From Bryobacterales bacterium (GTDB lineage Bacteria > Acidobacteriota > Terriglobia > Bryobacterales > UBA6623), in the NCBI GenBank assembly GCA_965204095.1, contig OZ241991.1:2640290-2704289 (forward strand): 64,000 nucleotides of DNA, in the 5' to 3' direction. The first letter of the stretch is position 1. Every line of letters starts with the position of its first letter. Both the position numbers and the translations under genes were made by a program. Positions 51 through 63,557 of this stretch are shown here, in pieces. Under the pieces are notes generated by a model. The model was not told where the DNA came from. It saw nothing but the letters and a program-made list of their open reading frames with translations, and searched no databases.

Positions 51-151
51 GCCTTTCCCGTTCACCGGCCGTCAGACATTTCTCCTGGAGCGAACCAGAC
101 CCCCCAACCATGCTTTTCACGAAACACGAATCACGAAAGACGAATCACGGC
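51..151 (+). repeat. Module copy 1 (CCTTTCCCGYTCACCGGCCGTCAGRCATTTCTCCTGGAGCGAACCAG...CCATGSTTTTCAC plus heptads)
   Basis: Near-identical to 721-806 and 1182-1284 by direct comparison. Confidence 0.9.
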
Positions 152-215
152 TTTTTTTCTTTTCACGAGACACGAATCACGGCCTTTCCCGTGGCTCGTT
201 TGGTACCTGTTGGTA

Positions 216-238
216 CTGAAGCCCTTCAGTCTTTTTTT
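216..238 (+). terminator. Weak hairpin plus T-run (CTGAA-GCCC-TTCAG-TCTTTTTTT)
   Basis: 5-bp stem, 4-nt loop and a run of 7 T. A second small hairpin (GTACC-TGTT-GGTAC) lies just upstream at 203-216. Confidence 0.35.
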
Positions 239-510
239 CGGTCGGAGGCCGGTTTAGGTTGAAAGTGATGACGCCGTTGCTGGGAACGAATACCTCATCC
301 ACGCCCGTCGGGGACGTGCCGGCTGGAGACAACAAAGCCGCCCGATCCAAGGCCGCCAAGGTTTTCACGAAACACGAGACACGAATCACGGCTTTTTTTC
401 GAATCACGGACTTTGCGGCCGTTCGGTTCTCCGTGGGTGTGCGAGGGATGGCGCCACCAGAAACCTCCGTCCGGACCACTGCACCCACCGGCGAGTCACT
501 GTTTCCCGGT

Positions 511-555
511 TCGCCATTGTTCACTATTGTTCACTATTGTTCGCCATTGTTCGGC
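511..555 (+). repeat. 10-bp tandem repeat, about 4.5 units (TCRCYATTGT)
   Basis: tcgccattgt tcactattgt tcactattgt tcgccattgt tcggc read directly. Confidence 0.9.
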
Positions 556-617
556 AAAAAATATTGTCCTGCGCCAGTGCCCTCGCACCGCCCGGTCGCT
601 GCTTTCCTGCAAGTTGT

Positions 618-656
618 GGCGCGGCATGGGGCGGCTATGGCGCGGCATGGGCGGCC
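618..656 (+). repeat. 11-bp tandem repeat, about 3 units (GCGCGGCATGG-like)
   Basis: ggcgcggcatgg ggcggctatgg cgcggcatggg read directly. Confidence 0.8.
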
Positions 657-720
657 GCCGTCCCCCGCACCGGCAACACGGCCTGTATGGTTTTCACTAA
701 TCACGAGACCCGGCTCTTTC

Positions 721-806
721 GGCCTTTCCCGCTCACCGGCCGTCAGACATTTCTCCTGGAGCGAACCAGGCCCCCAACCATGGTTTTCACGAATCACGAA
801 TCACGG
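721..806 (+). repeat. Module copy 2
   Basis: Near-identical to 51-151 and 1182-1284. Confidence 0.9.
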
Positions 807-963
807 ACTTTACCACCGCCCCTTGACGACTTCGCTGCGAATCTCGACGGGGCCATTCCTCGATATTCTGGGTTTTTTGCCGCCGGATAATGAGTTTTTC
901 CCGCGTGATTCCGTGTTTATGCCTCCGGATTACGATTTTTTTCGAATCTTTACGGTTCTTCGG

Positions 964-1017
964 CCCCACAATTCTTCGGAATTCCCCACAATTCCTCGGA
1001 ATTCTTCGGATACCCAC
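964..1017 (+). repeat. 20-bp tandem repeat, 2 units plus a partial unit (CCCCACAATTCYTCGGAATT)
   Basis: Direct reading of 964-983 against 984-1003. Confidence 0.85.
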
Positions 1018-1181
1018 AAGCCGCTGTCCGCTGCCCGCGCTCCGTCCGCGCCGGCAAAACGGCTTTTCTGCTTTTCACGAACCACGCAACATGGTTTTCC
1101 CTGTCCCTGCGGCGACTCCAAGGAGAGCAACCACAAGCCCGGCCAACGGGTTTTTCTCGCATCACGAATCACGGCTTTTTC

Positions 1182-1284
1182 GGCCTTTCCCGCTCACCGG
1201 CCGTCAGGCATTTCTCCTGGAGCGAACCAGGCCCCCCCGACCATGGTTTTCACGAGACACGAGTCACGAGACACGAATCACGGC
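1182..1284 (+). repeat. Module copy 3
   Basis: Near-identical to 51-151 and 721-806, with a longer heptad tract. Confidence 0.9.
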
Positions 1285-1320
1285 TTTTACGCTCTTCACG
1301 AATCACAGCTTCCCTACCCA

Positions 1321-1360
1321 CGATTTCCCACCATTTCCCGGCATTTCCCACCATTTCCCG
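1321..1360 (+). repeat. 10-bp tandem repeat, 4 units (SSATTTCCCR)
   Basis: cgatttccca ccatttcccg gcatttccca ccatttcccg read directly. Confidence 0.85.
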
Positions 1361-1526
1361 GCCCCCCCACCCCCCTCCGCCGTTCTCGGTCGGCCTCACG
1401 GCGCGCGCCGTCAGCCGCCGCTCCCGCCGCCGACCGGCAAGCACGAAAGCGGATTGCCGCGAAAATATGACTCGAATGTCAACCTCGGAAAGCGAAGAAA
1501 ACAAGTATGGAGATATAATCGTCACC

Positions 1527-5303: not shown

Positions 5304-7766
5304 TTGATGATGTCAGGGAAACGACTTTGGATTTCGGGTTCTTGCTTGTGGCTGATGACCGTCCTCGCGGTGAGCGGCGTTTGCGCCGGTCTGCAGCCTG
5401 CAAAGATCGTCATTACACCGTCCTCGCTCAGCCTCGACTCTTCCGAGCAGGGTCGGCGGGTCCTGGTGACGGGCGTCACGGCCGGCGGTGAAAAGTTCGA
5501 CCTGACCCGCGAAGCCCGCTTCGAACCCTCCGGCGGCGTTCGTGTCGACGACGACGGTTATCTGTATGGCCTCTCCCAGGGAGCGGCCACCATCAAGGTT
5601 TCAGCACGCGGCCGGTCGGTCGACCTGCCGGTCAACGTCGGCGACCTTTCCCAGAAGCGCGCCATCAGCTTCCTGAGCGACATCATGCCCGTGCTCAACA
5701 AGCAGGGCTGCACCGCCGGGGCCTGCCACGGGTCTGCCAAAGGCAAAAACGGCTTCAAGCTGTCGCTGCGCGGCTACGACCCCGAATTCGACTACCGCGC
5801 TCTTCTCTTCGACGTATCCGGCCGCCGTTTCAACCGCGCCGACCCGGCCCGCAGTCTGATGCTCGCCAAGCCCACCCAGGCCGTGCCGCACGAGGGCGGG
5901 CTCCGCATCGAGAAGGGCTCGCGCTACTACGACACCATTTTCAACTGGATCTCCGCCGGCACTCCGTTCGGCGACACGCAAGGAGACTCGGTCGCCAGTC
6001 TCGAAGTCACGCCGCCGGAAGTCTTCATGAGCCGCCCCGGCATGAAGCAGCAGATTCTCGTGGTCGCCACCTACGGTGATGGTTCCACCCGAGATGTCAC
6101 GCGCGAAGCCGTCGTCGCCAGTAGCCAGGACACCACGGCGAAGATCGTCGATGACTCCGTCGTCCAGGGCGAGCGCACCGGCGAGGCCACCCTGCTCGTT
6201 CGCTACGAAGGCAAGTTTGTGATCGTGCCGGTAACGATTCTCAATCCCGAGCCCGGTTTCGAGTGGAAACAGCTTTCGCGGCACAACTACATCGACGAGC
6301 ACATTGACGCAAAACTCGAACGCCTCAAGATCCAGCCTTCCGAAGTCGCCGGCGACAGCACCTTCGTCCGCCGTGTCTACCTCGACCTCATCGGCATCCC
6401 GCCCACGCCGGAGGAAGCCCGTGCCTTCATCGAAGACCCGGAGACGTCTCGCCTCAAGCGCATCCGCCTGATTGACGAGTTGATGAGGAGCAAGGAGTTT
6501 GTCGACCACTGGGCGCTCAAGTGGGGAGACCTGCTGCAGTCCAACCGCAAGTACCTCGGTGAGAAAGGCACCTGGGCGTTCCGCCAATGGATCCGTGATC
6601 AGATCGCGTCCAATCGCCCCTACGACCAGGTAGTGCGGGAGTTGATCACCTCCACCGGCAGCACCTACCAGAATCCGGCTGCGAACTTCTTCCGCGTCAA
6701 CAAGGATCCGAAAGAAGCGATGGAGAAAACGACGCAGCTCTTCCTGGGTGTGCGGATGGTCTGCGCGCAGTGCCACGATCACCCCTTCGAGCGCTGGACG
6801 CAGAATCAGTACTTTCAGCTTGCCGCCTTCTTTGCGTCCGTGGGAGTCAAGCCGGGCTTCGATAGCGACGAGGAAATCGTCTATCTCAAGCGCGACGACA
6901 ACACCGTCAAGCATCCCAAGACAGGGCGGATCGTCGAACCCGAGTATTTGATCGCCAGCGCCGGCGCGCCGCCCCTGAACTCCGAAGAGGATCGCCGCCT
7001 CGCCCTCGCCGAGTGGCTCACGTCGGATGAGAATCCGTTCTTCGCGCGCGCCATCACCAACCGTCTGTGGAGCTACTTCTTCGGACGCGGCATCATCGAT
7101 CCTGTCGACGACATTCGCGCCTCGAACCCGCCGGTGAACCCGGCGCTTCTCGAAGCTCTCGCCGCCGATTTCGTCAAGAACGGCTACGATCTGCAGCACG
7201 TGATCCGCACCATCGTGAACTCACGCACCTACCAGGCCGGTATCGCAGCCAACGAGTGGAACGAGAACGACGCGACGAACTTCTCGCGATTCCTGCCGCG
7301 CCGGCTGACGGCCGAGTCTCTGCTCGACGCGATCACCGTCGCGACCGGCTCTCGTCCGGAGTTCGATGAAGTTCCACCCGACTTCACTGCGCAAGAGCTG
7401 CCCGACCCGCACATCGGCAAGGGTGGTTTTCTCGACATGTTCGGCCGCCCCGAGCGGGAGTCGGCGTGCGAATGCGAACGCCGCAATGACATGAGTCTCC
7501 CGCAAGCGATGAGCCTCGTGAACGGACCGACGTTGGCGGAAGCGGTTGCCGATCCCGAGGGGCGGGTTGCCGCGGCCATCATCGCCGGGAAACCCGACCG
7601 CGAGCTGATCGAGGAACTGTACCTCGGCGCGCTCAGCCGCCTCCCGACGGCCGGTGAAATGGACAACGCCCTGACCTACTTGCGCCAGGGTTCCGGACGC
7701 GCCGCCGGAGCCCAGGATCTGCTGTGGGCGCTGATCAACAGCAACGCGTTTTTGTTCAATCGCTGA
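5304..7766 (+). CDS. DUF1549/DUF1553 (PSCyt2 + PSD1) protein with N-terminal Ig-like domain
   Basis: Signal peptide. Shows ...LSDIMPVLNKQGCTAGACHGSAKGKNGFKLSLRGYDP (PSCyt2-like) and CAQCHDHPFERWTQNQYFQLAAFF (PSD1/DUF1553-like). Confidence 0.9.
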   Translation: MMMSGKRLWISGSCLWLMTVLAVSGVCAGLQPAKIVITPSSLSLDSSEQGRRVLVTGVTAGGEKFDLTREARFEPSGGVRVDDDGYLYGLSQGAATIKVSARGRSVDLPVNVGDLSQKRAISFLSDIMPVLNKQGCTAGACHGSAKGKNGFKLSLRGYDPEFDYRALLFDVSGRRFNRADPARSLMLAKPTQAVPHEGGLRIEKGSRYYDTIFNWISAGTPFGDTQGDSVASLEVTPPEVFMSRPGMKQQILVVATYGDGSTRDVTREAVVASSQDTTAKIVDDSVVQGERTGEATLLVRYEGKFVIVPVTILNPEPGFEWKQLSRHNYIDEHIDAKLERLKIQPSEVAGDSTFVRRVYLDLIGIPPTPEEARAFIEDPETSRLKRIRLIDELMRSKEFVDHWALKWGDLLQSNRKYLGEKGTWAFRQWIRDQIASNRPYDQVVRELITSTGSTYQNPAANFFRVNKDPKEAMEKTTQLFLGVRMVCAQCHDHPFERWTQNQYFQLAAFFASVGVKPGFDSDEEIVYLKRDDNTVKHPKTGRIVEPEYLIASAGAPPLNSEEDRRLALAEWLTSDENPFFARAITNRLWSYFFGRGIIDPVDDIRASNPPVNPALLEALAADFVKNGYDLQHVIRTIVNSRTYQAGIAANEWNENDATNFSRFLPRRLTAESLLDAITVATGSRPEFDEVPPDFTAQELPDPHIGKGGFLDMFGRPERESACECERRNDMSLPQAMSLVNGPTLAEAVADPEGRVAAAIIAGKPDRELIEELYLGALSRLPTAGEMDNALTYLRQGSGRAAGAQDLLWALINSNAFLFNR

Positions 7767-10232: not shown

Positions 10233-10411
10233 CCTGCATGTCTCGCCACGAGGTGAGGTGAAGTGCGTGAGAGGGCCGCGTCACGACGAGGCGCTAGCCG
10301 CTTGGCGCGCGCAGGCGTACTTGAACAGTACATCGAGCACGGCAAGCAAGCGCAACGAAGTCATGGCGGTCGTATCGCGTGCTTCGGCCGTCAGATGGTG
10401 AGAAATGCAGG
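10233..10411 (+). repeat. Hairpin repeat family, copy 1 (full core, 179 bp)
   Basis: Left end cctgcatgtctcgccac, right end ggtgagaaatgcagg, central GC palindrome and GTACTTGAACAGTAC. Starts 5 nt after the 7814..10228 stop. Confidence 0.9.
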
Positions 10412-10451: not shown

Positions 10452-10475
10452 CACGAATCACGATTCACGAAACAC
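10452..10475 (+). repeat. CACGARW heptad tract (3 units) preceded by GGTTTTT
   Basis: cacgaat cacgatt cacgaaa read directly. Confidence 0.8.
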
Positions 10476-12732: not shown

Positions 12733-12783
12733 CCTGAATGTCTCACCACGCGGCGAGACGAAGTGCGTGAGAGGGCCGTCAGA
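12733..12783 (+). repeat. Hairpin repeat family, copy 2 (left arm only)
   Basis: cctgaatgtctcaccacgcggcgagacgaagtgcgtgagagggccgtcag, lying between convergent stop codons (12721 and 12807). Confidence 0.85.
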
Positions 12784-12806
12784 AGTGAGTTATGTAGGCT
12801 GGACCG

Positions 12807-21248: not shown

Positions 21249-21520
21249 CCTGCATTTCTCACCACGCGGCGAGGCGAAGTGGGTGAGAGGGCCGTCAGGA
21301 CTAGGCTCAAGCCGGGCGGAGGAAAAAGGCACGAGCCGCTTGGCGCGCGCAGGCGTTCTTGAACAGTACGTCGAGCACGGCAAGCAAGCGCAACGCAAGC
21401 CGCCCTTGAGCGACGGCCGTGCCGCCTGCCCAGGTTTTGGGGTCACGAAACACGAGACACGAAACACGAATCACGGCCTTTTTTCGCGTGCTTCGACCGT
21501 CGGGTGGTGAGACATGCAGG
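21249..21520 (+). repeat. Hairpin repeat family, copy 3 (long variant, 272 bp, with heptad tract 21444-21476)
   Basis: Same termini and core, plus extra GGCTCAAG..CTTGAGC and GGGCGG..CCGCCC complementary inserts and cacgaaa cacgaga cacgaaa cacgaat cacgg. Confidence 0.9.
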
Positions 21521-21765
21521 TTAGGCCCGGTCAAGCCACATTGCGGTTTGTTTCGGTCGAGATGGCAAGGGCTGCATTCCCTCCGCTCTCGACTTCTACT
21601 GCCGAGCCCGATGTTCGGATGACATTCTTCTCGCGGACGGGGCTCACAAGCTCTGCTATGTGTTGGGCTGCGAGGTGTCTTGTAGAGGGCGCGAACCCTA
21701 TTGGGAGACAAGCCTCATCGCATTCAATGCGCTTACCTGACTGCGGCGAAGCTTTTTCGCCGATC

Positions 21766-26351: not shown

Positions 26352-26599
26352 CCTGCTTTTCTCAACACGTGGCGAGACAAAGTGCGTGAGAGGGCCGTCA
26401 GGACGAGGCACGAGCCGCTTGGCGCGCGCAGGCGTACTTGAACAGTACGTCGAGCACGGCAAGCAAGCGCAACGCAAGCCGCCCTTGAGCGACGGCCGTG
26501 CCGCCTGCCCAGGTTTTGGGGTCACGAAACAGGAGACACGAAACACGAATCACGGCCTTTTTTCGCGTGCTTCGGCCGTCGGGTGGTGAGAAATGCAGG
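26352..26599 (+). repeat. Hairpin repeat family, copy 4 (long variant, 248 bp, heptads 26523-26555)
   Basis: Ends cctgcttttctcaacac / ggtggtgagaaatgcagg. Its right end abuts the TAA stop (26600-26602) of the minus-strand gene. Confidence 0.9.
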
Positions 26600-40454: not shown

Positions 40455-40497
40455 TGCGAAACATCTTCCTGATCAAGCGGCGTTGACAACGATCCGA

Positions 40498-40658
40498 ACG
40501 TTTCCCGCTTGAATGATCCGCACACGGGCGGAGGAAGAAGGCGCGCGCAGGCGCACTTGAACCGTACGTCGAGCACGGCATGCAAGCGTTGCGAAGGAAA
40601 AGCGAAGTCATGGCGGTCGTATCGCGTGCTTCGGCCGTCGGGTGGTGAGAAATGCAGG
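40498..40658 (+). repeat. Hairpin repeat family, copy 6 (left arm replaced by the GTTTCCCGCTTGAATGATCCGCAC module)
   Basis: From gggcggaggaagaaggcgcgcgcagg onward it is colinear with the consensus to ggtggtgagaaatgcagg. Confidence 0.85.
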
Positions 40659-42887: not shown

Positions 42888-43064
42888 CCTGTATTTCTCA
42901 CCACGTGGCGAGGCGAAGTGCGTGAGAGGGCCGTCAGGACGAGGCGCGCGCCGCTTGGTGCGCGCAGGCGTACTTGAACAGTACGTTGAGCACGGCAAGC
43001 AAGCGCAACGAAGTCCTGGCGGTCGTATCGCGTGCTTCGACCGTCAGGTGGTGAGAAATGCAGG
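42888..43064 (+). repeat. Hairpin repeat family, copy 7 (177-bp core; used for the pairing analysis)
   Basis: Ends cctgtatttctcaccac / ggtggtgagaaatgcagg, flanked by TAG and CTA. Confidence 0.92.
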
Positions 43065-43130: not shown

Positions 43131-43164
43131 CCTGCATGTCTCGCCACCTGGAGAGACATGCAGG
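43131..43164. repeat. 34-bp mini-hairpin made only of the family termini
   Basis: cctgcatgtctcgccacctggagagacatgcagg has a 12-bp perfect stem identical to the family ends (G/C allele). Confidence 0.85.
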
Positions 43165-47477: not shown

Positions 47478-47653
47478 CCTGTATTTCTCACCACGTGGCG
47501 AGATGAAGTGCGTGAGAGGGCCGTCAGGACGAGGCGCGCGCCGCTTGGCGCGCGCAGGCGTACTTGACGGTACGTTGAGCACGGCAAGCCAGCGCAACGA
47601 AGTCCTGGCGGTCGTATCGCGTGCTTCAGCCGTCGGGTGGTGAGAAATGCAGG
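47478..47653 (+). repeat. Hairpin repeat family, copy 8 (176 bp)
   Basis: Fills the gap between the convergent trpE and murB genes. Its right end abuts the murB TAA stop (47654-47656). Confidence 0.92.
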
Positions 47654-48631
47654 TTAGAACTCTCCTACGTACTGGACCTCTTCTTCGACCGCGAATCCGT
47701 AGCGATCGGCGATTCGCTGCTTGAGCTCCTCGATCAACGAACGCAGTTCGGCGGCGGTCCCTCCGCCGGCGTTGTAGATGAGATTGGCGTGGTAGTCGGC
47801 GACGGCAATCCCTCCGCGCCGCATCCCTTTTGCCCCGACTTGGTCGAGAAAATAGGCCGAAGCCACCTTGCCCTCACGGACGGCTCGCTCGGGAACTTCG
47901 GCCGCTGCCGACGGAGGCAAGTCTTTGACGTGGAGATTCTTGAAAATGCTTCCCGCGCAGCGCATCGTGGGCGGAAACTTCTCGTCGCGAATCGCCATGA
48001 TCTTGTCCGCGCGGCTCCGAAGCTCCGCTCGATCGGCCCGCTCCAGCAGCAGACTGCAACAGAAGATCATCCAGTCCTTGTTTCGCTTGAAGACGCTTCC
48101 CCGATATTCGAACGCGCAGCCCGCGTTATCCAGTTTCCGAACCTCCTCGCCGTCATAAAAGCGAACCCACTCGATACTCTCTGAAATGGAGTGTCCATAC
48201 GCACCGGCATTGCCGTAGATGGCGGCGCCGACCGAACCGGGAATGCGGGCCAGGGTCTCCAGGCCTCGGAGCCCTGCGGTGATCGCCGCATCCACCAGGG
48301 ATTCGAGCGCTGCGCCCGCGTCCGCTTGAAGCTGCAGGCCTTGCTGTTTGATGGACTTCGCCGTGAACCGCAGCACAAGGCCTCGATAGCCCGCATCCGC
48401 GATGATGACGTTCGTGCCGTCGCCGAGAATGCAGTACGGCACCTTGTGGGTTCTGCAAATGTGAACGGTCTCCGCAAAAGCTTCCGGTTCGGCCGTTTCC
48501 GCAAAGAGATCAGCGCGGCCGCCGATCCCGAAACGGGTGTACCCTCGCAGTTCCACATCGCTCCGTACATTCAGCTTCTCGACCTGCGCAAGCGACGACG
48601 CGACGGAATCCAAAGAGACAGGGTGTGTCAT
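47654..48631 (-). CDS. murB: UDP-N-acetylenolpyruvoylglucosamine reductase
   Basis: FGIGGRADLF, GSVGAAIYGNAGAYG and a FAD-binding PCMH-type pattern. Confidence 0.95.
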   Translation of the reverse strand: MTHPVSLDSVASSLAQVEKLNVRSDVELRGYTRFGIGGRADLFAETAEPEAFAETVHICRTHKVPYCILGDGTNVIIADAGYRGLVLRFTAKSIKQQGLQLQADAGAALESLVDAAITAGLRGLETLARIPGSVGAAIYGNAGAYGHSISESIEWVRFYDGEEVRKLDNAGCAFEYRGSVFKRNKDWMIFCCSLLLERADRAELRSRADKIMAIRDEKFPPTMRCAGSIFKNLHVKDLPPSAAAEVPERAVREGKVASAYFLDQVGAKGMRRGGIAVADYHANLIYNAGGGTAAELRSLIEELKQRIADRYGFAVEEEVQYVGEF

Positions 48632-48700: not shown

Positions 48701-48734
48701 GCCTGCATGTCTCGCCACGTAGTGAGACATGCAG
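48701..48734. repeat. 34-bp mini-hairpin made only of the family termini
   Basis: cctgcatgtctcgccacgtagtgagacatgcagg, lying between the divergent murB and DUF2461 gene starts. Confidence 0.85.
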
Positions 48735-48760
48735 GCTGACCCTTTCGACGAGGAGACGCC

Positions 48761-50515: not shown

Positions 50516-50642
50516 GACACCGGTCCGGCGGTTTCCCGCTTGTATGATCCGCACGCGGTCACAGGAAAAACTGACCTGCGTCTTCCGACCGGATCGTGAG
50601 CTGGTCATCCCTCTCGCACTCCCCGGACGTCCGGTACCCTAA

Positions 50643-50715
50643 CCTGCATTTCTCACCACGCGGCGAGGCGAAGTGGGTGAGAGGGCCGTCAGGACTAGGC
50701 GCGAGCCGGGCGGAG
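50643..50715 (+). repeat. Hairpin repeat family, copy 9, left part (split by the intron)
   Basis: cctgcatttctcaccacgcggcgaggcgaagtgggtgagagggccgtcaggactaggcgcgagccgggcggag. Joined to 52593-52720 it recreates the copy-5 variant exactly at the junction. Confidence 0.9.
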
Positions 50716-52592
50716 ATCGGGATAGGGGGGAGCCTCGCGGCTCCACCCCTCCCACACCACCGTGCATACGGGTCCGTACACGGCGGTTCGACGGATTTAA
50801 GCGGCTGCACGGGCTTCAACAGAGACGAGGCCGAGGTGCGCGAAGAAGGCATTGGATAGAGCGATCGCGAGCGCGGGACTGTTGCTGATCCGCCACGGGC
50901 CGTGGGCACTGCCAGCGGTTTGGGCCGCCAGATCCTTGCCGATGCCATGGCGGCGCAACGCCGCAAAGCGGGTGCGCCCGCGCTTCCACTGCCGCCAGAC
51001 GAGGGCGCGAAGCCGCCGTCTGATCCACTGGTCGAGTCGATGCAATACCCAGGGGGTCTCGCAGAAGCCGAAGTAGCCCCGCCACCCGACGAGGTAGCGA
51101 GACAGTTCCGCAACGAGATGGGCGAGACTGACGCTCTTGGTGCACTGCGTCAGTTCCCGGACCCGCGCCTTGAACCGAGCGAGTGTCTGCGGCGCGATGC
51201 GCCGCTTGACCGCTGGTCCGGCTGTAAAGCTGAAGCCCAGCAAGGCCCGCGCCACTGGACGATCCACCGCGCTCTTGTCTGCGTTCACCGTCAGCTTCAG
51301 TCGCCGCGCAAGGAAGCGGGTCACGCTCACCATCACCCGCTCGCCCGCCCGCCGGGACCGCACGTAAATGTTGCAGTCGTCGGCATAGCGGACGAAGCGG
51401 TGACCGCGCTTCTCCAGTTCCTTGTCCAGCACGTCAAGCATCAGGTTCGACAGCAAGGGCGAGAGCGGTCCGCCTTGCGGCGTCCCCTTGGTAGTCGGGC
51501 CGACCAGCCCGCCCTCCAGCACACCCGCGCTCAGGAAGCCGCGGATCAGCTTGAGCAGGCGTTTGTCGGCCACCCGTCTGGCCACCAGTCCCATCAGGAT
51601 GTCGTGGTTGACCCGGTCGAAGAATTTCTCCAGATCGAGATCGACCACGATGCCGAAGCCCGAGCGGATGTGGTTCTGCGCGGACTGGATTGCCTGGTGG
51701 GCCGAGCGTCCGGGCCGAAACCCGTAGCTCGCATCCGAGAAGCTGGGGTCCCACTCCCCCTGCATCACCTGCATCACTGCTTGCTGGATGAAGCGGTCGA
51801 GTACCGTCGGCACTCCGAGCGGTCGAACCCCGCCCGACGCCTTCGGTATCTCCACCCGCCGTACCGGCTGCGGGGTGTAGCTGCCGTCGAGAAGTCGGGA
51901 CCTGATCTCGGTCCAGTGGTCCTTCAGGTGATCGCCCAGCTCATCGACCCTCATGCCGTCGATGCCGGGCGCCCCTTTGTTGCGCCGGACTCGCGCCAGC
52001 GCCTTCTTCAAATTGCCGGGCTCGACGACCGTCTCCATCGACGGTCCCTGCCCAGCCGCCGGGCGTTCGGGTCCGGCACGCGCCAGGCGGGCTTCGGTCC
52101 CTTGGGCTCCGGCGCTCCGGGCTTCACCCTTCGCCTCCGGCTCCAAGGCCAGTTCCAACTGGATATTCTGCCGCTTGGTCCGCATGAGCGTACCGTCCTA
52201 CTAACCCTGTCCGTCGTTCGGGCCTTCGCCGGCGTGCCGACTACTATGCCCTCTGCTGACTTCTGCGCCGCGATCACGGGCCTTGCGGACCCGCTCAGTC
52301 CGGGACTTCCGGACACGGCGCAGACCTCCCGAGATAAGATCGACCGCCTTCACCGCGCACCCGCCGGATCTACCACCCCGGCCCTTGATGGCTATGGACT
52401 TCGCGATCATTCGCTCGCTCGTCCGGCCGGGTAGGCCTCGTATCCGGTTCTTGTCCATCGGGTCGCGGCTTTGCTCCACGCTTCCTTCAGACCCCGCCTC
52501 GCGACGACGCCCTTGCGCTTCGCTAATCCTTCGCCGCCATCGGGCTGGATAAAGGACTTGCACCCCCAAGCTGTCGATCATGCTCGGCATAC
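50716..52592 (-). mobile_element. Group II intron (1877 bp), IIC-like, inserted in repeat copy 9
   Basis: Boundaries come from comparison with uninterrupted copy 5. The minus-strand intron starts GTATGCC and ends ...CCCGAT (AY). It has about 407 nt 5' of the ORF and 81 nt 3' of it, including a domain-V-like hairpin near 50757-50795. Confidence 0.85.
50797..52185 (-). CDS. Group II intron reverse transcriptase/maturase (no endonuclease domain)
   Basis: RT blocks (GAPGIDGM, RRVEIPKASGGVRPLGVPTVLDRFIQQA, YADDCNIYV) and X/maturase region (RYLVGWRGYFGF). The short C-terminus has no HNH motif. Confidence 0.95.
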   Translation of the reverse strand: MRTKRQNIQLELALEPEAKGEARSAGAQGTEARLARAGPERPAAGQGPSMETVVEPGNLKKALARVRRNKGAPGIDGMRVDELGDHLKDHWTEIRSRLLDGSYTPQPVRRVEIPKASGGVRPLGVPTVLDRFIQQAVMQVMQGEWDPSFSDASYGFRPGRSAHQAIQSAQNHIRSGFGIVVDLDLEKFFDRVNHDILMGLVARRVADKRLLKLIRGFLSAGVLEGGLVGPTTKGTPQGGPLSPLLSNLMLDVLDKELEKRGHRFVRYADDCNIYVRSRRAGERVMVSVTRFLARRLKLTVNADKSAVDRPVARALLGFSFTAGPAVKRRIAPQTLARFKARVRELTQCTKSVSLAHLVAELSRYLVGWRGYFGFCETPWVLHRLDQWIRRRLRALVWRQWKRGRTRFAALRRHGIGKDLAAQTAGSAHGPWRISNSPALAIALSNAFFAHLGLVSVEARAAA

Positions 52593-52621
52593 GAAAAAGG
52601 CGCGCGCCGCTTGGCGCGCGC
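52593..52621 (-). terminator. Terminator-like GC hairpin plus U-run (minus strand) immediately 5' of the intron insertion point
   Basis: Minus strand reads GCGCGCGCC-AAGC-GGCGCGCGC-CTTTTTC, then the intron GTATG. Confidence 0.5.
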
Positions 52622-52720
52622 AGGCGTACTTGAACAGTACGTTGAGCACGACAAGCAATCACAACGAAGTCCTGGCGGCCATATGGCGTGCTTCAGCCGT
52701 CGGGTGGTGAGAAATGCAGG
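52593..52720 (+). repeat. Hairpin repeat family, copy 9, right part
   Basis: gaaaaaggcgcgcgccgcttggcgcgcgcaggcgtacttgaacagtac...ggtggtgagaaatgcagg. Its right end abuts the TAA stop (52721-52723). Confidence 0.9.
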
Positions 52721-53734
52721 TTAACTACCCGCCGGTGCGGGACTGTAACGGGGGGACAACAGTGAACCGTCGTCGATCGGAAGGCTCAACCGCACGAACC
52801 GCGGCGTGTTGGCGAAGGCGACCGTGACGTACTTGTAGAAAGAGCCATCCAAGGCGCGCGGCGCGGTTGGTAGATCCACGACTTTCTTCGTTCCATCCAG
52901 AAGAGAACTCAGCTCGTCGGCTCCCGGCAGCCCGGACGGAGCCTCGCCGGCGAGAGGCGGCCGCAGACTGCTGTAAACCGTATCGCCATCGATCGACACG
53001 ATGTGAATCTCGTCGATGGGACTGGAGTTCACAATGCGCAGTAGCCGGCTGTTGATTTCCTCCGTCGACCACCCGTCCTCCTCGGCGCCCACGACGAAGT
53101 ACTCCGCGAGCCTGGCCTGCACAACCATCTGCTTGCCGAGGATCTCCTCGAACACGACTCTGATCTCGTCCAGTTGGTCGGTAAAGGCGAAATCCAGCAG
53201 ATCCGGCTCGCCGAAGGCTGCCATCACCGCGGTCATGACCGGCGAGGTATAGGAGCCGCTCAGGAGATCGTGCTCCTCGAAGGCAAGCGCATTACCCACT
53301 TGCACGATCCGCTTGCGGTCGACGCCGTTGACCCCGACATACTTGTAGACTTCCTGATCGATCTCCCGCACCTGCGCCGATTGCGTGATGACGTGGTCGC
53401 TCTCGATGGGGGACGCAAGCAGGGCGTAGAACTTCGAGGCCTGCGGCTGCACAGCGGGATTGGGATTGAACCGGAAGGGCATCAGCGCGCCGGTTTCGTC
53501 CCGGACGTTGGTGAGATAGGCCACGCCCTGCTCGTCGGTGATCCAGAACTCGTCGAGCACCGTGGTCGAAGCGATGACTTCGAGGGTCTCGATCACTTGT
53601 GCGGCGTCATGCCCTCTCGCTTCGGCCACCGCCACAAGATGCGCGGCGATGCGTGCCTGGGCCGTCATCTGGCCGTCCAGCATCGCGTCAAGGGCGCGTG
53701 CGACCGTGGCTAGCGAGATTTTGGGCATTTCCAC
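52721..53734 (-). CDS. Hypothetical protein with an internal tandem duplication (two ~150-aa sensor-like halves)
   Basis: Residues ~20-75 (MTAQARIAAHLVAVAE...LDEFWITDEQGVAYL) parallel ~190-245 (MVVQARLAEYFVVGAE...IDEIHIVSIDGDTVY). No signal peptide or TM segment seen. Confidence 0.6.
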   Translation of the reverse strand: MEMPKISLATVARALDAMLDGQMTAQARIAAHLVAVAEARGHDAAQVIETLEVIASTTVLDEFWITDEQGVAYLTNVRDETGALMPFRFNPNPAVQPQASKFYALLASPIESDHVITQSAQVREIDQEVYKYVGVNGVDRKRIVQVGNALAFEEHDLLSGSYTSPVMTAVMAAFGEPDLLDFAFTDQLDEIRVVFEEILGKQMVVQARLAEYFVVGAEEDGWSTEEINSRLLRIVNSSPIDEIHIVSIDGDTVYSSLRPPLAGEAPSGLPGADELSSLLDGTKKVVDLPTAPRALDGSFYKYVTVAFANTPRFVRLSLPIDDGSLLSPRYSPAPAGS

Positions 53735-55948: not shown

Positions 55949-56190
55949 CCTGCTTTTCTCGCCACCTGGCCAGGCGAAGTGCGCGAGAGGACCGTCAGGA
56001 CGGGGCGCGAGCCGCTGGGCGCCGGCAACACGGCCTGTGCGGTTTTTCACAAAACACGAAACACGGCCTTTCATGCCTCGGGGTTTCGCATTTCCGGTTT
56101 TTGTCTTTGCATCACGAATCACGAGACACGAGACACGAATCACGGCCTTTGTATCGTGTGCTTCGGCCGCCGGATGGCGGGAAATGCCGG
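55949..56190 (+). repeat. Hairpin repeat family, copy 10 (divergent long variant, 242 bp, heptads 56048-56066 and 56113-56145)
   Basis: Ends cctgcttttctcgccac / atggcgggaaatgccgg, with an A-U to G-C compensatory change. Its right end abuts the TAG stop (56191-56193). Confidence 0.85.
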
Positions 56191-58053
56191 CTACCCCGGA
56201 GTGTCGTAGCGCAGGTCCCAGTTGCCGAGTTTGTGCAAGGTGGCCCCCGATTGTTGGATGACGGGCTCACCGGCGCGGACCCAGTCGGCGATCTCTTCGC
56301 GATGGCCGAGCCGCCGCAGGGCTGTCCAGGAGCGGCTGTAATCGCAACGCTGGTAGCAGTCCCAGAAAAACAGGTTCTCGACCCCCGCTTGATAGAGCCC
56401 GTGGGCGCGACGGCGATAATCCTCGGGAGTCATTTGCCGCGGCAGCAGGCTCGCCGCCACCTTGCATGAAGTGCCCCTGGTGATCCGCAGGAAGTACTCG
56501 GCGGCGCCGGGGTCCACGAACGTGTCCTGACTGCTGTTCAAACTGTCGGTCGAGGTGTAGGGGATCAAGGTGTCGACCAGCCCCTCGCGGATCCACTCTT
56601 CCAGATCCATCGCGTAGTAGAGGTTGGCCTGCTCGGTGCCCATCACGATGGCCGACACCTCGAAGGGACGCTTCCGGCCTTGCCGTCGGGCCTCGTCGTC
56701 GAGCGTTTCCCGAACCTCGCGCATGAACTGCGTGAGGTACGTGGCGCGGTGCTTCAACCAGCGGGGATCGCGTTCGTCGAGCTTGCGCGCATCTTCGCCA
56801 TACTTCTCCTCGAACCCCTTTACGATGGGCTCTTCGTACTCGACGAGTGGCGGCCTGCGGTTGTAGAGCAGGCAGATGCCATCGATGGGATAGGCCGCGA
56901 TCTCGCGAAACACCGAGAGCACGTATTGCCGCACGCCCTCATAGGCATAGGAAAGACGAGGCGTGGGCTGCCCTTGCCGATTGCGTCCCCGCCACTCGGG
57001 ACGCCGGTCGTAGAGTCCCCCGGTGTTCCATTCGTCCTCGGGCACGGGGAAGTGAAAGCCCGCCACCCGATACGAAGCGTGAAACTCGAGACCGGCTTCA
57101 CGGGTATGATCCGCCGCGACACGTAGTTGGTCGATGCCTTTCTCGCGAAACACCCGGAACGATTCCGCCGCGAGCCGGTCGCGAACCCGGAAAGGGTCCT
57201 GGACCCAGTCATTTGTCGCTGGCAGACCGATCTTCGTGGGGTAGAACATCTTGTCTCCCCCGCCGGCCTCCCAATAGATCCGGGAGAAATCGGTGTCGCG
57301 GTAGGGCTCGATCTCGCGCCGGATGTCGGCCTCCGTTGACGGCCGCAACCAGCTCACGTATCCCCAGGCATCGTTGTGCGCGTACAGGCGGCGGGTGTCT
57401 TTGCGACGGCGCTCCGCCTCGAGCTGTTCGACTTCCTCGTCGGACAAGGGCGTCAATTTGACATAGGCCAGCCACAGCGGAAGGCAGGAGTTCGCCACCG
57501 ACGCTTCGTTTTCGGGGACAAGCCGGGGGCAGAACTGCCGCAGGACCAGTCCCTCGCCGGTCAGGTCGGCGGTCTTCCAGTACAGGTCGTCGATGCGGGT
57601 TCGGGTGTCGAAGGTGGTTGGGCGAATCTCGTAGTCTCTACGGCTCTGTTTCTTGCCGACAACGTCGTTGTGGGTGATGAGACTGAAGGTGGATTCGCTG
57701 TCGAGCCGCATCTCGAGCCGCGACTCGCCGTAACGCGAGCGAAGCCCGAAGTGGATCGCGTGCCAGCCCTTGCGGTTGAGGGGCAGCGTGATCTCGGGAG
57801 CGGCGGTGTTGTGCCCCGCGACGAGCATGACTCCTTCGGTCTTGTCGCTCGCATAGTCGAGCAGGCGCCAGTGGTGGCGCTTGGGCTTTCGCGAAAGAGC
57901 CTCCGACGGCCGGCATTGACTGAAGTCCGAAAGATACACCGCCCGCTCTTGCCCATAGGCTCCAGAACGAAGAGCGCCGAGTAGAGTTCCCGCCGCGAGA
58001 ACCTCCCGTCTGCTCCACAGGCCGTTTTTAGTGTGTTCGTAGTTCATTGGCAT
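56191..58053 (-). CDS. Tat-signal hypothetical protein (620 aa)
   Basis: WSRREVLAAGTLLGALRSGAYG twin-arginine signal and strong codon bias. I cannot place the family; possibly a glycoside-hydrolase-like barrel. Confidence 0.65.
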   Translation of the reverse strand: MPMNYEHTKNGLWSRREVLAAGTLLGALRSGAYGQERAVYLSDFSQCRPSEALSRKPKRHHWRLLDYASDKTEGVMLVAGHNTAAPEITLPLNRKGWHAIHFGLRSRYGESRLEMRLDSESTFSLITHNDVVGKKQSRRDYEIRPTTFDTRTRIDDLYWKTADLTGEGLVLRQFCPRLVPENEASVANSCLPLWLAYVKLTPLSDEEVEQLEAERRRKDTRRLYAHNDAWGYVSWLRPSTEADIRREIEPYRDTDFSRIYWEAGGGDKMFYPTKIGLPATNDWVQDPFRVRDRLAAESFRVFREKGIDQLRVAADHTREAGLEFHASYRVAGFHFPVPEDEWNTGGLYDRRPEWRGRNRQGQPTPRLSYAYEGVRQYVLSVFREIAAYPIDGICLLYNRRPPLVEYEEPIVKGFEEKYGEDARKLDERDPRWLKHRATYLTQFMREVRETLDDEARRQGRKRPFEVSAIVMGTEQANLYYAMDLEEWIREGLVDTLIPYTSTDSLNSSQDTFVDPGAAEYFLRITRGTSCKVAASLLPRQMTPEDYRRRAHGLYQAGVENLFFWDCYQRCDYSRSWTALRRLGHREEIADWVRAGEPVIQQSGATLHKLGNWDLRYDTPG

Positions 58054-60754: not shown

Positions 60755-60914
60755 ACCGGACGTGAAGCGACAAGGTTGGACAGTGACGATGGGATGCATG
60801 CGGCCACCCAAGACTACCCAACCATGCAGGTTTCGCGATGAGGAGCCCCACGCGGATTAGGGGGGGACGTCAGTTGTAACGCCTCGCCTAGGTCCATAGA
60901 TTTCTGCATACAAT

Positions 60915-60956
60915 TTCCGGTTGCGGCCGGATCGGTCAACAGCGCCACAATTGACC
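60915..60956 (+). repeat. 42-bp direct repeat, right copy
   Basis: ttccggttgcggccggatcggtcaacagcgccacaattgacc. Confidence 0.85.
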
Positions 60957-60991
60957 ACTCTGGTCTCGGAGAGGCGGTGGTAGCCGCCAGG

Positions 60992-61459
60992 TCAGTACGT
61001 GACACGTCCCGCCAGGCGCGTCCAGGCCTCGAAGGCATCGAGCGCCCCTTCGCACGGGACATGCTCTATCGGCAGTGCGCGTTCCTCGAACGGCTTCGCC
61101 AGCTCCTCGTAGATGAACTCGTCGAGGAACTCGATACTGGCCGCGTCGTGCCGGTTGACCGCAAAATAGACCCTGCCGATGCGCGACCAGTAGATCGCGC
61201 CCAGGCACATCGGGCACGGCTCGCAACTGGCGTAGATCTCGCAGCCCGACAGCTCATGTGTCGCCAGCTTGCGGCAGGCGTTCCGGATCGCCACGATCTC
61301 GGCATGGGCCGTGGGGTCCTTCGAGCGCAGCACCTCGTTCCAGCCTTCGCCGATGACCGTGTCGTCGCGGACGACCACGGCCCCGAACGGCCCGCCGTGC
61401 CCCAACTCCATACCTCTGCGGGAGAGTGCCACCGCCCGCTTCATGTGCGCCTCGTTCAT
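60992..61459 (-). CDS. Guanine-deaminase-like CDA-fold nucleoside/nucleotide deaminase
   Basis: Start at 61459 within ORF 60992..61681. Shows HAEIVAIRNA and SCEPCPMCLGAIYWS zinc motifs, plus a GuaD-like C-terminal tail. Confidence 0.85.
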   Translation of the reverse strand: MNEAHMKRAVALSRRGMELGHGGPFGAVVVRDDTVIGEGWNEVLRSKDPTAHAEIVAIRNACRKLATHELSGCEIYASCEPCPMCLGAIYWSRIGRVYFAVNRHDAASIEFLDEFIYEELAKPFEERALPIEHVPCEGALDAFEAWTRLAGRVTY

Positions 61460-61692
61460 CTTTCTATCGTGCCGGCCCGCCGCTCGAACCGGTCCGGCCT
61501 CGCATACGCCGCCTCCACCTTGTTCGGCGCCATTTGTGTCAGCGCCGCCTCGATGACCTCCCGCAGCTGGTCGCTCCGCTCGGCCGCCCAGTCCCGGAAC
61601 GACGAGCGGAAACCGTGCGCAACGGCGGGGTTCCAGTGGTCCTGGAGCATCTTCGGCAGCTCCGACATGGCGATTGGCCACGCAGCATACAC
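61456..61692 (-). pseudogene. P4-type tyrosine integrase C-terminal fragment
   Basis: HGFRSSFRDWAAE...NKVEAAYARPDRFERR is the typical integrase C-terminus. There is no N-terminal part. Its stop overlaps the deaminase ATG (ATGA). Confidence 0.75.
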
Positions 61693-61725
61693 TATTCAGG
61701 CGGCGTGAAGCGCATTTCTGCGTAG

Positions 61726-61902
61726 CCTGCTTTTCTCACCACATGGCGAGGCGAAGTGCGTGAGAGGGCCGTCAGGACGAAGCGCGAGCCGCTTGGCGCG
61801 CGCAGGCGTACTTGAACAGTACGTTGAGCACGGCAAGCAAGCGCAACGAAGTCCTGGCGGTCGTATCGTGTGCTTCGACCGTCGAGTGGTGAGAAATGCA
61901 GG
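61726..61902 (+). repeat. Hairpin repeat family, copy 11 (177 bp)
   Basis: Ends cctgcttttctcaccac / agtggtgagaaatgcagg, flanked by TAG and CTA. Confidence 0.92.
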
Positions 61903-62008
61903 CTAATCCAAGAAATACGCTTCAAGGTAAATTGGCGAAAGTGCAGCGAACCTTCGACAGTCGATGCATTCTTCAGTTCTCATCCCGCTTGCCCCCTTGG
62001 AAGCGCCT

Positions 62009-63283
62009 TCACTCCGCGATCCATGCCGGATCGATGCGCAGCAAGTCCCTCCGGTTGACGTCGATGCTTCTCTCGATGCGATGGTAGCGCAACAGGATCG
62101 AGCCGTCCCCGGTTTCGCAGAGAAACGGGTAGCGCATGTGTGCGTTCCGGAGTTCCTTCGTGGACGGTTTTGCGATCAGCTTCGAAGCGCTCCAGCTTTT
62201 GCCGTCGTCGTCCGATATCGCCGCGTGCAGGTATTGGCGTCCCGAGCGGTGAATCTCGTCGCCGGGGTAGTTCGCCCAGTCGTTCCATGACAACACCAAC
62301 CGCCCGTCCGACAACCGCAGGATGCCGGCCGGAGCGTTGGCCGCCCGGATGTCGGTCGGCGTGGAGGGTTCCCACGAGCTGCCGCCGTCCGGCGAGAACG
62401 TCTGATAGAAACGGCCGTACTGCGAGCGGAAGAGCATCCATACGCGGCCGTCGTCGAGCTCCGCCATCACCGGTTCGATGGCGCCGGGGTGCCCGAGGCC
62501 GGGACCGAGCGGGACCCGGATGTCATCGTCGCCCAATTCCCAGGTCTCCCCGTGGTCGGAGGAGAACAGGGTCAGAATGCGGTACTCGTATTCCCCGCGT
62601 TCGGCGAGATAGTTGTCGGTCGCATAGTTCGATGCGAAGAGGATGCGTCCACTGGACAGCTCGATGATCGACTCGATCACCGGCACATAGTGATGCCCCA
62701 TGTCGATGCGCTTGGGGTCCGTCCAGGTCTCGCCTCCGTCGCGGGACACGTTGTGATACAGCTCGGTAAGCCCGATCGCCGCCGGATCGCCCTTTCGGGG
62801 CAGGCCGTAATAACGCATGGCGAAAAGATGGAGCGTGTTCCGCCGATCGAGCAGCAGGTACGGCCCGACGGACTGCTCGTAACGAAACATCGTGCCGCGG
62901 CCCGCGGGGTAGGAGAACGCCGCTCTCTCCCGCGACCAGGTGCGGCCGTGGTCGTCGGAATATCGGATGTAGAGAGGCTGCTCCGGGCCCGGCCGCGGGA
63001 CCTCTCTGCGATCGCGCCCCAGGGTGTAGACCGTCACCAGCCGGTCGTCCCGCAGTTTCGCGATGTGACCGATGCGACCTTCATAGTCGATCAGGGCGGG
63101 GCCGGCGGCGGCCTCGGCGGCAACGAAACTCAGCAGGGCCAGCAGAATGAGGGTGCTTCCCCTTCTCCCCTGCCGGCGCTGCCGTTCCTCCGTCAACGAG
63201 GCCCACTCACCGCCGACGCCGCGGTATGCTCCCGCTGCCGGGAGTCTGATCTCGAACTTAGGAATCAGTGCGTCATGTCTCAT
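62009..63283 (-). CDS. BNR/Asp-box repeat (sialidase-like beta-propeller) protein
   Basis: Five Asp-boxes: SDDHGRTW, SRDGGETW, SSDHGETW, SPDGGSSW and SDDDGKSW. Start uncertain; the signal-like LILLALLSFVAAEAAAG begins about 45 aa in. Confidence 0.85.
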   Translation of the reverse strand: MRHDALIPKFEIRLPAAGAYRGVGGEWASLTEERQRRQGRRGSTLILLALLSFVAAEAAAGPALIDYEGRIGHIAKLRDDRLVTVYTLGRDRREVPRPGPEQPLYIRYSDDHGRTWSRERAAFSYPAGRGTMFRYEQSVGPYLLLDRRNTLHLFAMRYYGLPRKGDPAAIGLTELYHNVSRDGGETWTDPKRIDMGHHYVPVIESIIELSSGRILFASNYATDNYLAERGEYEYRILTLFSSDHGETWELGDDDIRVPLGPGLGHPGAIEPVMAELDDGRVWMLFRSQYGRFYQTFSPDGGSSWEPSTPTDIRAANAPAGILRLSDGRLVLSWNDWANYPGDEIHRSGRQYLHAAISDDDGKSWSASKLIAKPSTKELRNAHMRYPFLCETGDGSILLRYHRIERSIDVNRRDLLRIDPAWIAE

Positions 63284-63292
63284 CTTTTCTTA

Positions 63293-63557
63293 CCTGCATG
63301 TCTCACTACGTAGCGAGGTGATTTGCCTGCATGCTGCGGGCAGTCGTGAGAAGACCGCCAGGACGAGACGCGAGCCGCCCGCGCCGGCAACACAGCCCTG
63401 AAGGGGTTTTTAGCGAATCACGAGTCACGAATCACGCCCTTTCACGCCTCCGGATTTCGCATTTCTGGTTGTTTTGTTTTTGCATCACGAGTCGAGTCAC
63501 GAAACACGAATCACGGCCTTTCCGCGTGCTCCAGCCGTCGGGTTGTGAGAAAGGCGG
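63293..63557 (+). repeat. Hairpin repeat family, copy 12 (divergent long variant with heptads 63412-63437 and 63486-63516)
   Basis: Left end cctgcatgtctcactac, right end gggttgtgagaaaggcgg, with internal GGCAACACAGCC and heptad modules as in copy 10. Confidence 0.8.

Follow-up and report, generated by a model that had tools for sequence, protein, structure and literature searches.

The 64,000-nt stretch of a Bryobacterales genome analyzed here (contig OZ241991.1, positions 2,640,290 to 2,704,289; 'the window' in the following refers to this whole stretch) contains intergenic tandem arrays of the heptad CACGARW. We found these heptads to be real but largely explained: they are the heptamer-repeat module of a new mosaic family of miniature inverted-repeat transposable elements (MITEs). 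With a probability of roughly 70%, we regard them as a module of this Bryobacterales family that arises and drifts by slippage of 7-nt units and is dispersed by transposition. New are the CACGARW unit and the fixed caps around it, the fact that it is a portable module of a MITE, and its strict polarity. The window has a GC content of 62% and a housekeeping gene content, including rpoD, aroDE, trpE, murB, nadE, hom, PQQ dehydrogenases and DUF1549/DUF1553 proteins. It was compared with about 1.1 Mb of related sequence, sampled as loci of genomes (L004 to L103) and metagenomes (L157 to L276), among them L011 (OZ242366.1, a closed metagenome-assembled genome, MAG), L025 (JAPOOG01) and L035 (OZ244625.1, a MAG chromosome titled Bryobacterales). 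L035 is syntenic with the window at ~90-93% nucleotide identity, and so is L107, a 2.4-Mb metagenome contig, at ~90-95% (overall about 92%). More distant RpoD relatives likewise carry the name Bryobacterales, and the genome was therefore assigned to this order of the Acidobacteriota and not to the planctomycetes, in spite of its PSCyt domains.

An earlier, sequence-only reading of the window had listed 13 heptad tracts of 3-5 units, all on the same strand. All 13 were recovered within 1-2 nt of where it had placed them, and Tandem Repeats Finder independently detected period-7 arrays at the same places. However, our parse resolved 14 arrays of 1-4 units each plus a closing unit, which corrects the unit number. 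The otherwise accurate listing had overlooked the degenerate tract at 695-715 and had counted 1161-1174 as tandem although only one full unit precedes the closing CACGGC there, while the tract at 56048-56066 does exist but actually reads CACAAAA CACGAAA. The arrays of the first 1.4 kb and one further array read as follows; the remaining ones are given with their host elements below.

118 to 150, + strand: array CACGAAA CACGAAT CACGAAA GACGAAT with closing CACGGCT, then a T run
164 to 182, + strand: two units and CACGGCC TTT
366 to 390, + strand: three units and CACGGCT, GGTTTT before and a T run after
695 to 715, + strand: degenerate array CACTAAT CACGAGA CCCGGCT
788 to 806, + strand: two units and CACGGAC TTT
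1163 to 1174, + strand: one unit and CACGGCT TTTT
1251 to 1283, + strand: four units and CACGGCT TTT, with CCATGGTTTT upstream
10452 to 10475, + strand: three units without a closing unit, 40 nt beyond an element end

All 18 occurrences of the tandem dimer CACGARWCACGARW are on the + strand, while 0.01 are expected from dinucleotide-preserving shuffles; the tracts are thus non-random and the same-strand claim holds. Single CACGARW heptads, in contrast, are barely enriched in the window (57 versus 38.6 expected), and the ten found on the - strand are scattered inside genes. Consequently, the signal is the tandem, strand-specific arrangement.

Bracketing by GGTTTT and by CACGGCC with a T run was likewise borne out. 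A T run ([GCT][GCT]TTTT, most often GGTTTT) stands immediately 5' of 9/14 window arrays, and GGTTTT or a T run lies 4-20 nt upstream of the remaining five. In 11/14, an in-phase CACGGC[CT], or once CACGGAC, closes the array and TTT comes next, the exceptions being the arrays at 695, 10452 and 63419, and in the parse of the Bryobacterales loci a T run follows 121 of 135 CACGG-closed arrays. The heptad module therefore measures ~45 nt and comprises GGTTTT, 2-4 CACGARW units, CACGGCY and a T run. With only 4 of 91 arrays inside called open reading frames (ORFs), and with a tandem 7-nt unit that is over-represented against chance, the arrays belong to the intergenic heptameric class of simple sequence repeats (SSRs) in the sense of Mrazek (2007). 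A coding repeat was rejected, since a period of 7 nt is not divisible by three and the arrays lie outside ORFs supported by GC content at third codon positions (GC3); the ORF called at 259-1470 is an artefact of the repeats. A hypermutable SSR with open-ended copy number does not describe them either, as units differ and never exceed five per array.

That the heptads belong to a long repeat family was seen correctly before. However, they are not an independent motif, because they travel within a MITE-like element whose presence differs between close relatives. Repeat analysis delivered families D1-D9 and at least 12 copies of an element that starts with CCTGCATNTCTCACCAC and ends with GTGGTGAGAAATGCAGG. 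Its terminal inverted repeats (TIRs) have a 17-nt core (CCTGCATTTCTCACCAC / GTGGTGAGAAATGCAGG) with an imperfect extension to about 37 nt, and GAAGTGCGTGAGAGGGCCGTCAGGAC is a marker of the left arm. The basic element of 176-177 nt is a near-perfect hairpin (-116.9 kcal/mol, z -12.6 for the copy at 42888..43064); the fold of a heptad-bearing variant gave z -5.6. The elements are small and non-coding, with at least 13 copies in the window and more than 100 in the other loci, and their size classes in the window and the related loci are 34 nt (TIR joined to TIR), 177 nt (commonest by far), ~200 nt, 250-300 nt and a few composites of 0.9-1.4 kb. Most elements lack a heptad module. According to a by-eye alignment of size variants, the left arm and the two terminal repeats are retained in heptad-bearing copies, while a block takes the place of some of the right arm. 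The end of this block reads (G)GTTTT, CACGARW units and CACGGCC-TTTT(AT), and the right terminal repeat (CGCGTGCTTCG...) follows without a gap. In the commonest form, of ~280 nt, there are in addition 'module C' (GGCCGTCAGACATTTCTTCTGGAGCGAACCAGG) and a short initial array (CACGAAA CACGGCC). In the predicted fold, the closing CACGGCC and its T run pair, with G-U pairs, to GAGAGGGCCGT of the left arm, and thus resemble a degenerate remnant of the right arm. The orientation of the module is always that of its host element. The following copies and related features were found in the window.

1 to 1400, + strand: gene-free composite of heptad modules, module C copies (GGCCGTCAGACATTTCTCCTGGAGCGAACCAGG) and four arrays of 10-nt period
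10233 to 10411, + strand: basic TIR element, 179 nt, no heptads, 4 nt past the stop of the gene ending at 10228
12733 to 12785, + strand: left-arm fragment of a TIR element
21249 to 21520, + strand: TIR element of 272 nt, target site duplication (TSD) TTAG/TTAG, the left TAG being the GntP permease stop codon, heptad module 21444-21478 in the right arm
26352 to 26599, + strand: TIR element of 248 nt, TSD TTAT/TTAT, heptad module 26523-26557, site empty in L107
31882 to 32561, + strand: degenerate TIR-bounded insertion of ~680 nt with a 153-aa hydrophobic ORF without Pfam match, absent from L107
35234 to 35420, + strand: TIR element of 187 nt, TSD CTAG/CTAG, no heptads, absent from L107
40525 to 40658, + strand: TIR element, right part only (left part replaced)
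42888 to 43064, + strand: basic 177-nt TIR element, one long hairpin
43131 to 43164, no strand assigned: 34-nt TIR-TIR mini-palindrome
47478 to 47653, + strand: basic TIR element, TSD TTAG/TTAG, between two convergent stop codons
48702 to 48735, no strand assigned: 34-nt TIR-TIR mini-palindrome
50643 to 52720, + strand: TIR element without heptads, split by a - strand group II intron
55949 to 56190, + strand: TIR element with double heptad module (56048-56066, 56113-56145)
61726 to 61902, + strand: basic 177-nt TIR element
63293 to 63558, + strand: degenerate TIR element with double heptad module (63412-63437, 63486-63516)

The notion that the tracts lie inside long repeat variants is thus right for those starting at 21444, 26523, 56048, 56113, 63412 and 63486, whereas the tracts from 118 to 1283 lie in the 1.4-kb composite and the one at 10452 lies outside any element. 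Window 1-1400 comprises the same modules as the elements, without a recognisable TIR pair, and includes an AT-rich hairpin plus T run at 214-236. Similar composites sit inside TIR-bounded elements at L043 868-2099 and L013 204-1565. The four 10-nt-period tandem arrays of this gene-free region (509-553, 617-655, 964-1010 and 1317-1362; e.g. GTTCGCCATT, CCCACCATTT) are distinct from each other, and related decamer arrays occur in the L043 and L013 composites.

Comparison with close relatives revealed empty sites. L107, at 92% identity, has none of the five window elements from 19.1-37.5 kb across a syntenic stretch of 21.5 kb, and the junctions are exact, with duplications TTAT, CTAG and TTAG:

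Downstream of rpoD: L107 empty agcCTACgtcc, window filled agcTTAT[element]TTATgtcc
Site at 35.2 kb: L107 empty CTAG, window filled CTAG[element]CTAG
Downstream of GntP: L107 empty TTAG, window filled TTAG[element]TTAG

Two more presence/absence cases were found between L011 and L025, one with a clean TTAA duplication (empty site TCAA) and one with imprecise flanks (ACAG/ATAA). Identical flanking 4-mers were observed in 22 of 56 elements, while 7.2 are expected by chance and the maximum in 2000 shuffles was 16; the target consensus is NTAR with a 4-bp duplication. Six window insertions have a duplicated TAG/TAA that also terminates the reading frame of the gene next to them (21246-21248, 26600-26602, 35231-35233, 47654-47656, 52721-52723 and 56191-56193). 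Since TA-containing tetramers are rare in a genome of 62% GC, the insertion target is often a TAG or TAA stop codon, and since the duplicated target doubles as stop codon, insertion is tolerated exactly at gene ends. The elements are thus mobile or indel-polymorphic, and with TIRs, TSDs with matching empty sites, small size, lack of coding capacity and many copies they show the defining features of MITEs. IS200/IS605-derived palindromic elements and REP/REPIN sequences were rejected as their identity, as the duplicated flanks vary (TTAG, TTAT, CTAG, TTAA) and are single at empty sites. Besides the insertions, the gap between GntP and the PQQ dehydrogenase differs in content: in L107 (2058-7055) it holds a 5-kb pair of Metallophos and AAA_27 (SbcCD-like) genes, while in the window (21249-21753) it consists of the TIR element plus 230 nt of unrelated sequence only.

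Unit numbers and element interiors vary, as judged from paralogues and species-level orthologues. Among 176 arrays in the Bryobacterales loci, 19, 52, 34, 68 and 3 have one, two, three, four and five units, respectively. The 52 homologous copies of module C plus heptads contain three units in 20 cases and four in 24, but never more than five, and frequent unit orders differ by one lost unit (AAT-AGA-AAA-AAT in 11 copies, AAT-AGA-AAT in seven). At two orthologous sites, the window and L035 share the same insertion with different interiors, while the flanks are ~91% identical. Where the window has a double module of 2+4 units (55949-56190), L035 retains a degenerate tract of 1-2 units (CACGAGA CTCGAAT CACGGCC), and where the window has a group II intron and no heptads (50643-52720), L035 has two 2-unit modules and no intron. 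Likewise, an orthologous composite of OZ242366.1 and JAPOOG01 is 67% identical, compared to 93% in its flanks. Whole-unit change and module turnover are therefore real, and element interiors change faster than the flanking genes. The repeated unit itself also diversifies within the family, since CACTAWY heptads replace or mix with CACGARW in L011 5459-5639, L038 5228-5482, L072 2954-3143 and window 695-708.

Further observations concern derivatives and insertions. In the 34-nt palindromes (43131-43164, 48702-48735) the left TIR is joined directly to the right TIR; at least five more copies exist in other loci, and they represent either reduced derivatives of the element or what its excision left behind. 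The group II intron (~50716-52560, - strand) lies between GCCGGGCGGAG and GAAAAAGGCGCGCG of its TIR element, is absent from the orthologous L035 element and encodes a reverse transcriptase and maturase ORF (50797-52185) without endonuclease domain. Fragments resembling intron ends (GTTTCCCGCTTGAATGATCCGCAC...) are also present at 40485-40539 and 50516-50570. At L096 6554-7978, an IS110-family (DEDD) transposase gene (6772-7728) has inserted into the right arm of a heptad-bearing element, and thus the elements act as landing pads for other mobile DNA. A TIR-bounded copy at L070 1393-2277 carries a Sel1-repeat protein as passenger ORF.

A scan for CACGARWCACGARWCACGG through 596 Gb of species-representative genomes gave multiple matches per locus, always with the same caps, in four Bryobacterales MAGs with the same TIRs and modules (OZ242366.1, OZ244625.1, JAPPLB01 and JAPOOG01). 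Matches in many other phyla were scattered and all lacked the GGTTTT and CACGGCC caps; these arrays are ordinary perfect heptamer repeats. As a control in IMG/VR, (CACGAAT)3 was found in 16 stretches, compared with 9, 9 and 8 for three composition-matched heptads. Without caps outside Bryobacterales and at only about twice the control frequency, CACGAAT is thus not special there, and a universal signal was rejected. A metagenome scan with a 19-mer of the left arm detected at least 120 stretches, most of them from MKWU01, with 86 further capped arrays among the matches listed. The elements and their modules populate sponge-type metagenome contigs as well as the Bryobacterales MAGs.

Two of the distant arrays have a peculiar context: in L100 (Caldilineaceae) and L078 (Lentisphaerae), CACGAAT arrays flank a small ORF resembling the four-helix-bundle '23S rRNA IVS protein' (IVS, intervening sequence). 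A general link to such genes was rejected, as it is limited to these two loci and none lies near the window or Bryobacterales arrays. In L030 (Bacteroidales, 1040-1200), GTACGAT x4, CACGAAT x5, CACGACT and CCTGCAT x3 adjoin each other, and such side-by-side arrays suggest a general heptamer-generating process in unrelated bacteria.

Taken together, we propose that the heptads are the repetitive core of a ~45-nt module, which in turn is one interchangeable block of a lineage-specific MITE family of marine or sponge-type Bryobacterales. In the longer variants, the heptad module, often together with module C, replaces part of the right arm, and composites of up to 1.2-1.4 kb stack such modules. 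Slippage during replication or unequal exchange of 7-nt units, whose size class is known to be favoured in bacteria, probably gave rise to the arrays and still lets them drift. They may spread passively with the element and would need no cellular function of their own. Within a sense transcript they should bulge out, rich in CA and weakly paired, from a hairpin that is very stable in its other parts.

Several points weigh against this proposal. Among TIR pairs more than 600 nt apart in the ~1.1 Mb of loci, none proved to be an autonomous partner that shares the TIRs and encodes a transposase; what these pairs enclose is the IS110 insertion, the Sel1 ORF, a group II intron, an NHL ORF or an SBP gene. 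For seven window arrays (118-1283, and 10452), no enclosing TIR pair could be demonstrated. Moreover, array length is tightly bounded (2-4 units plus cap) and the non-identical units (AAT, AGA, AAA, AGT) recur in the same order, which is unlike an open-ended slipping microsatellite and could reflect constraint or simply a recent origin of the copies from one master or two. In twenty 4-unit copies, identity is 90% or higher in all but a few columns, and they are thus too young for selection to be read from them. Finally, the near-absolute co-orientation of the elements (66 of 68 neighbour pairs) is unexpected for ordinary MITEs and hints at a mechanism or selection beyond slippage and transposition.

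This co-orientation accounts for the same-strand rule of the window heptads. All 13 window elements are co-oriented, and all 86 arrays of the metagenome loci, among the matches listed, lie on the strand of their locus's elements. Counting only neighbour pairs at least 800 nt apart, we obtained:

Window: 8 pairs in the same, 0 in opposite orientation
Genome loci: 25 same, 0 opposite
Metagenome contigs, among the matches listed: 33 same, 2 opposite
All neighbour pairs, over 212 kb: 66 same, 2 opposite

The two orientation switches are in L173 (1738-/11368+) and L181 (68+/2012-). Transcription was rejected as a cause of the polarity, given 357 kb of co-oriented versus 316 kb of anti-oriented coding sequence and mixed contexts. 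The replication strand as read from GC skew was rejected as well, with a skew component of 0.002 (confidence interval -0.008 to 0.012), while GC3 skew tracks gene strand only. No two-replichore pattern emerged in the closed MAG OZ242366.1, where 17 sampled loci were '-' and three '+', and neither local hopping nor gene conversion fits, as neighbours are no more similar than distant copies. GC skew is negative across the whole window, which together with the endonuclease-less group II intron on the - strand hints at a replication fork moving from right to left, although this is a single data point. One might speculate that the polarity reflects insertion or selection that is specific for orientation and tied to a chromosome-wide process, so that the elements with their heptad modules would constitute a polar, strand-marking genome-architecture system new in Acidobacteria, which we regard as rather unlikely. 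Candidate processes are fork-coupled integration by a TIR- and TSD-making transposase or a directional signal like KOPS or Chi, and the asymmetric, capped and bounded heptad module, with CACG every 7 nt, would be a candidate for the strand-specifically read part.

Protein-binding roles of the heptads at the RNA or DNA level are unsupported and appear unlikely. In partition-function folds of 17 elements, the mean pairing probability of the heptads was 0.41 versus 0.69 for the rest in sense RNA, and 0.61 versus 0.65 in antisense. The single-stranded CA-rich platform of the sequence-only reading is thus right as far as poor self-pairing in sense RNA is concerned, but this is a relative property and the tract is not strictly single-stranded. 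Such a platform, with CACG every 7 nt between U runs, might recruit an oligomeric or tandem binder of single-stranded RNA (cold-shock protein, S1, Rho or other) that affects decay, termination or translation of neighbouring genes. Beyond the sense-specific reduction in pairing, this would agree with the bounded unit number and with the position of the elements, which abut stop codons and would consequently be transcribed as 3' untranslated or intergenic RNA; comparable proposals exist for TAACTGA repeats (PMC4679880). Arrays are in sense in 13 and in antisense in five co-directional contexts; however, this split is not significant, and many arrays lie between convergent (13) or divergent (20) genes. 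As the module is in addition absent from most elements and gained or lost between orthologous elements of ~91%-identical genomes, we consider an RNA platform unlikely. No Rfam family matches the module at the gathering threshold or at E <= 1, the models retrieved being those of group II introns only. At the DNA level, the CACG repeats could be subterminal sites for a putative transposase or host factor, modulating transposition or setting orientation. The module always adjoins the right terminal repeat in one orientation, the basic element has further CACGGC-like motifs in its core and its arms, and none of the causes considered above explains the polarity. Cooperative binding to tandem sites without helical spacing is feasible, as in the 8-bp met boxes of MetJ. 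However, the heptad-free 177-nt copies are the most numerous and themselves insertion-polymorphic, so that heptads are not needed for movement or polarity, and the transposase search found none, which makes a DNA site array improbable.

The closing CACGGCC might also act as an add-on: by pairing with an upstream GGCCGT(G/C), and with the T run behind it, it would convert a symmetric hairpin into an intrinsic terminator that works in one direction. The TTTTTT behind GGCCGTG...CACGGCC at 21416-21484, the GGCCGTC of module C upstream of most arrays, the pairing of ACGGCCUUUUUU with the left arm in the predicted fold and the frequent T run behind closed arrays agree with this. However, consensus scans called neither canonical terminators nor sigma-70-like promoters at + strand array ends, where the arrangement of GC-rich stem, 3-8 nt loop and T run was not found (elsewhere, there were two weak terminator calls on the - strand and one call in a spacer). 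The enclosed loop measures 45-70 nt, and by inspection GGCCGT and CACGGC[CT] variants show no compensatory changes, so a terminator function appears very improbable. Whole-unit differences among copies could alternatively mark a contingency locus, where gain or loss of units switches an adjacent gene by phase variation. Given imperfect and few units, housekeeping neighbours and a location mostly at gene 3' ends or between convergent genes, at no fixed distance to start codons or promoters, this is more doubtful still, to the point of being barely credible. Finally, the repeat-rich 1.4 kb at 1-1400 superficially resembles an origin, and the tracts had been compared to an iteron-like array. Yet composites of this kind are found many times in a genome, the product of the gene at 1467 is a WD40/PSCyt1 protein and not DnaA, and GC skew does not change sign at 1-1400. 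With hundreds of dispersed copies carried on elements with TIRs and TSDs, and no replication gene, the comparison fails, and the chance that these are iterons of a replication origin or a plasmid or phage satellite is close to nil.

The heptads, seen as a module of a mosaic MITE family, link two poorly understood phenomena, the excess of 7-nt tandem repeats between bacterial genes and the mosaic hairpin MITEs. As a portable module, a heptamer array can spread by transposition instead of arising site by site. Five insertions in 18 kb, compared to a 92%-identical genome, point to a very recent MITE expansion in sponge-type Bryobacterales. Such insertions reshape gene ends, with stop codons within the duplicated target, and provide landing pads for the group II intron and the IS110 element. 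If co-orientation were tied to replication or segregation, it would offer a handle on chromosome polarity in a phylum with uninformative GC skew. For annotation, knowledge of the family avoids false ORF calls (e.g. 259-1470) and false 'regulatory motif' calls.

Comparison with known systems places the element among long-hairpin MITEs at TA-containing targets, such as the Neisseria Correia elements and enterobacterial ERIC. Like these, it is 100-300 nt long, has TIRs and a short TA-centred duplication, lies intergenically near gene ends, folds as a whole into a hairpin and exists in many copies without a transposase. It differs in its unrelated sequence, the 4-bp NTAR duplication, mosaic stackable interiors and neighbours that are almost always co-oriented. 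Modular mosaic repeats are known from pneumococcal BOX (boxA-boxB(n)-boxC), Neisseria NIMEs and E. coli BIMEs, which are likewise assembled from few short modules, one internal module varying in number, and form composites of different lengths. In contrast to BOX, the variable unit here is a 7-nt repeat in a 45-nt module, not a 45-nt box, and TIRs and TSDs are clear. The sequence-only reading had named membership in a known insertion sequence end or satellite as what would speak against a motif in its own right. Essentially, this is what was found, as the heptads are a module of a mobile element, although the element family itself seems undescribed.

With regard to the unit, the earlier statement that no such motif has been described stands for the strings as such, since our literature search found no paper with CACGAAT-type strings, but not for the class of intergenic heptameric tandem repeats (PMC4692102, PMC4679880). 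According to Mrazek et al. (2007), as cited in these two papers, heptamers are the most abundant class of long SSRs in many bacteria, and polymerase slippage has been proposed. Intergenic GGGAATC in Xanthomonas and GGGGA(T/C)T in Nostoc (PMC4692102), TAACTGA in Beggiatoaceae, Cyanobacteria and Bacteroidetes (PMC4679880) and, as cited in PMC4692102, three heptanucleotide repeats in Calothrix PCC 7601 are without established function. GACAGAT x3 in the Coxiella IVS (PMC4990558) is a variable-copy heptamer array in a selfish element, likewise without established function and located before a four-helix-bundle ORF, comparable to the L100 and L078 arrays next to four-helix-bundle genes, but no such gene lies near the arrays of the window or the Bryobacterales loci. 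The arrays described here share with the intergenic heptamers of Xanthomonas, Nostoc and Beggiatoaceae the 7-nt unit, arrays of 2-6 copies, an occurrence at hundreds of sites between genes of particular lineages, variation of both length and sequence between close relatives, an unassigned function and slippage as the proposed origin. Unlike those, CACGARW has fixed caps (GGTTTT, CACGGCY-TTT), non-identical units in recurrent order and a transposable hairpin as carrier, and it shows strict strand polarity, whereas the Nostoc and Xanthomonas repeats occur on both strands.

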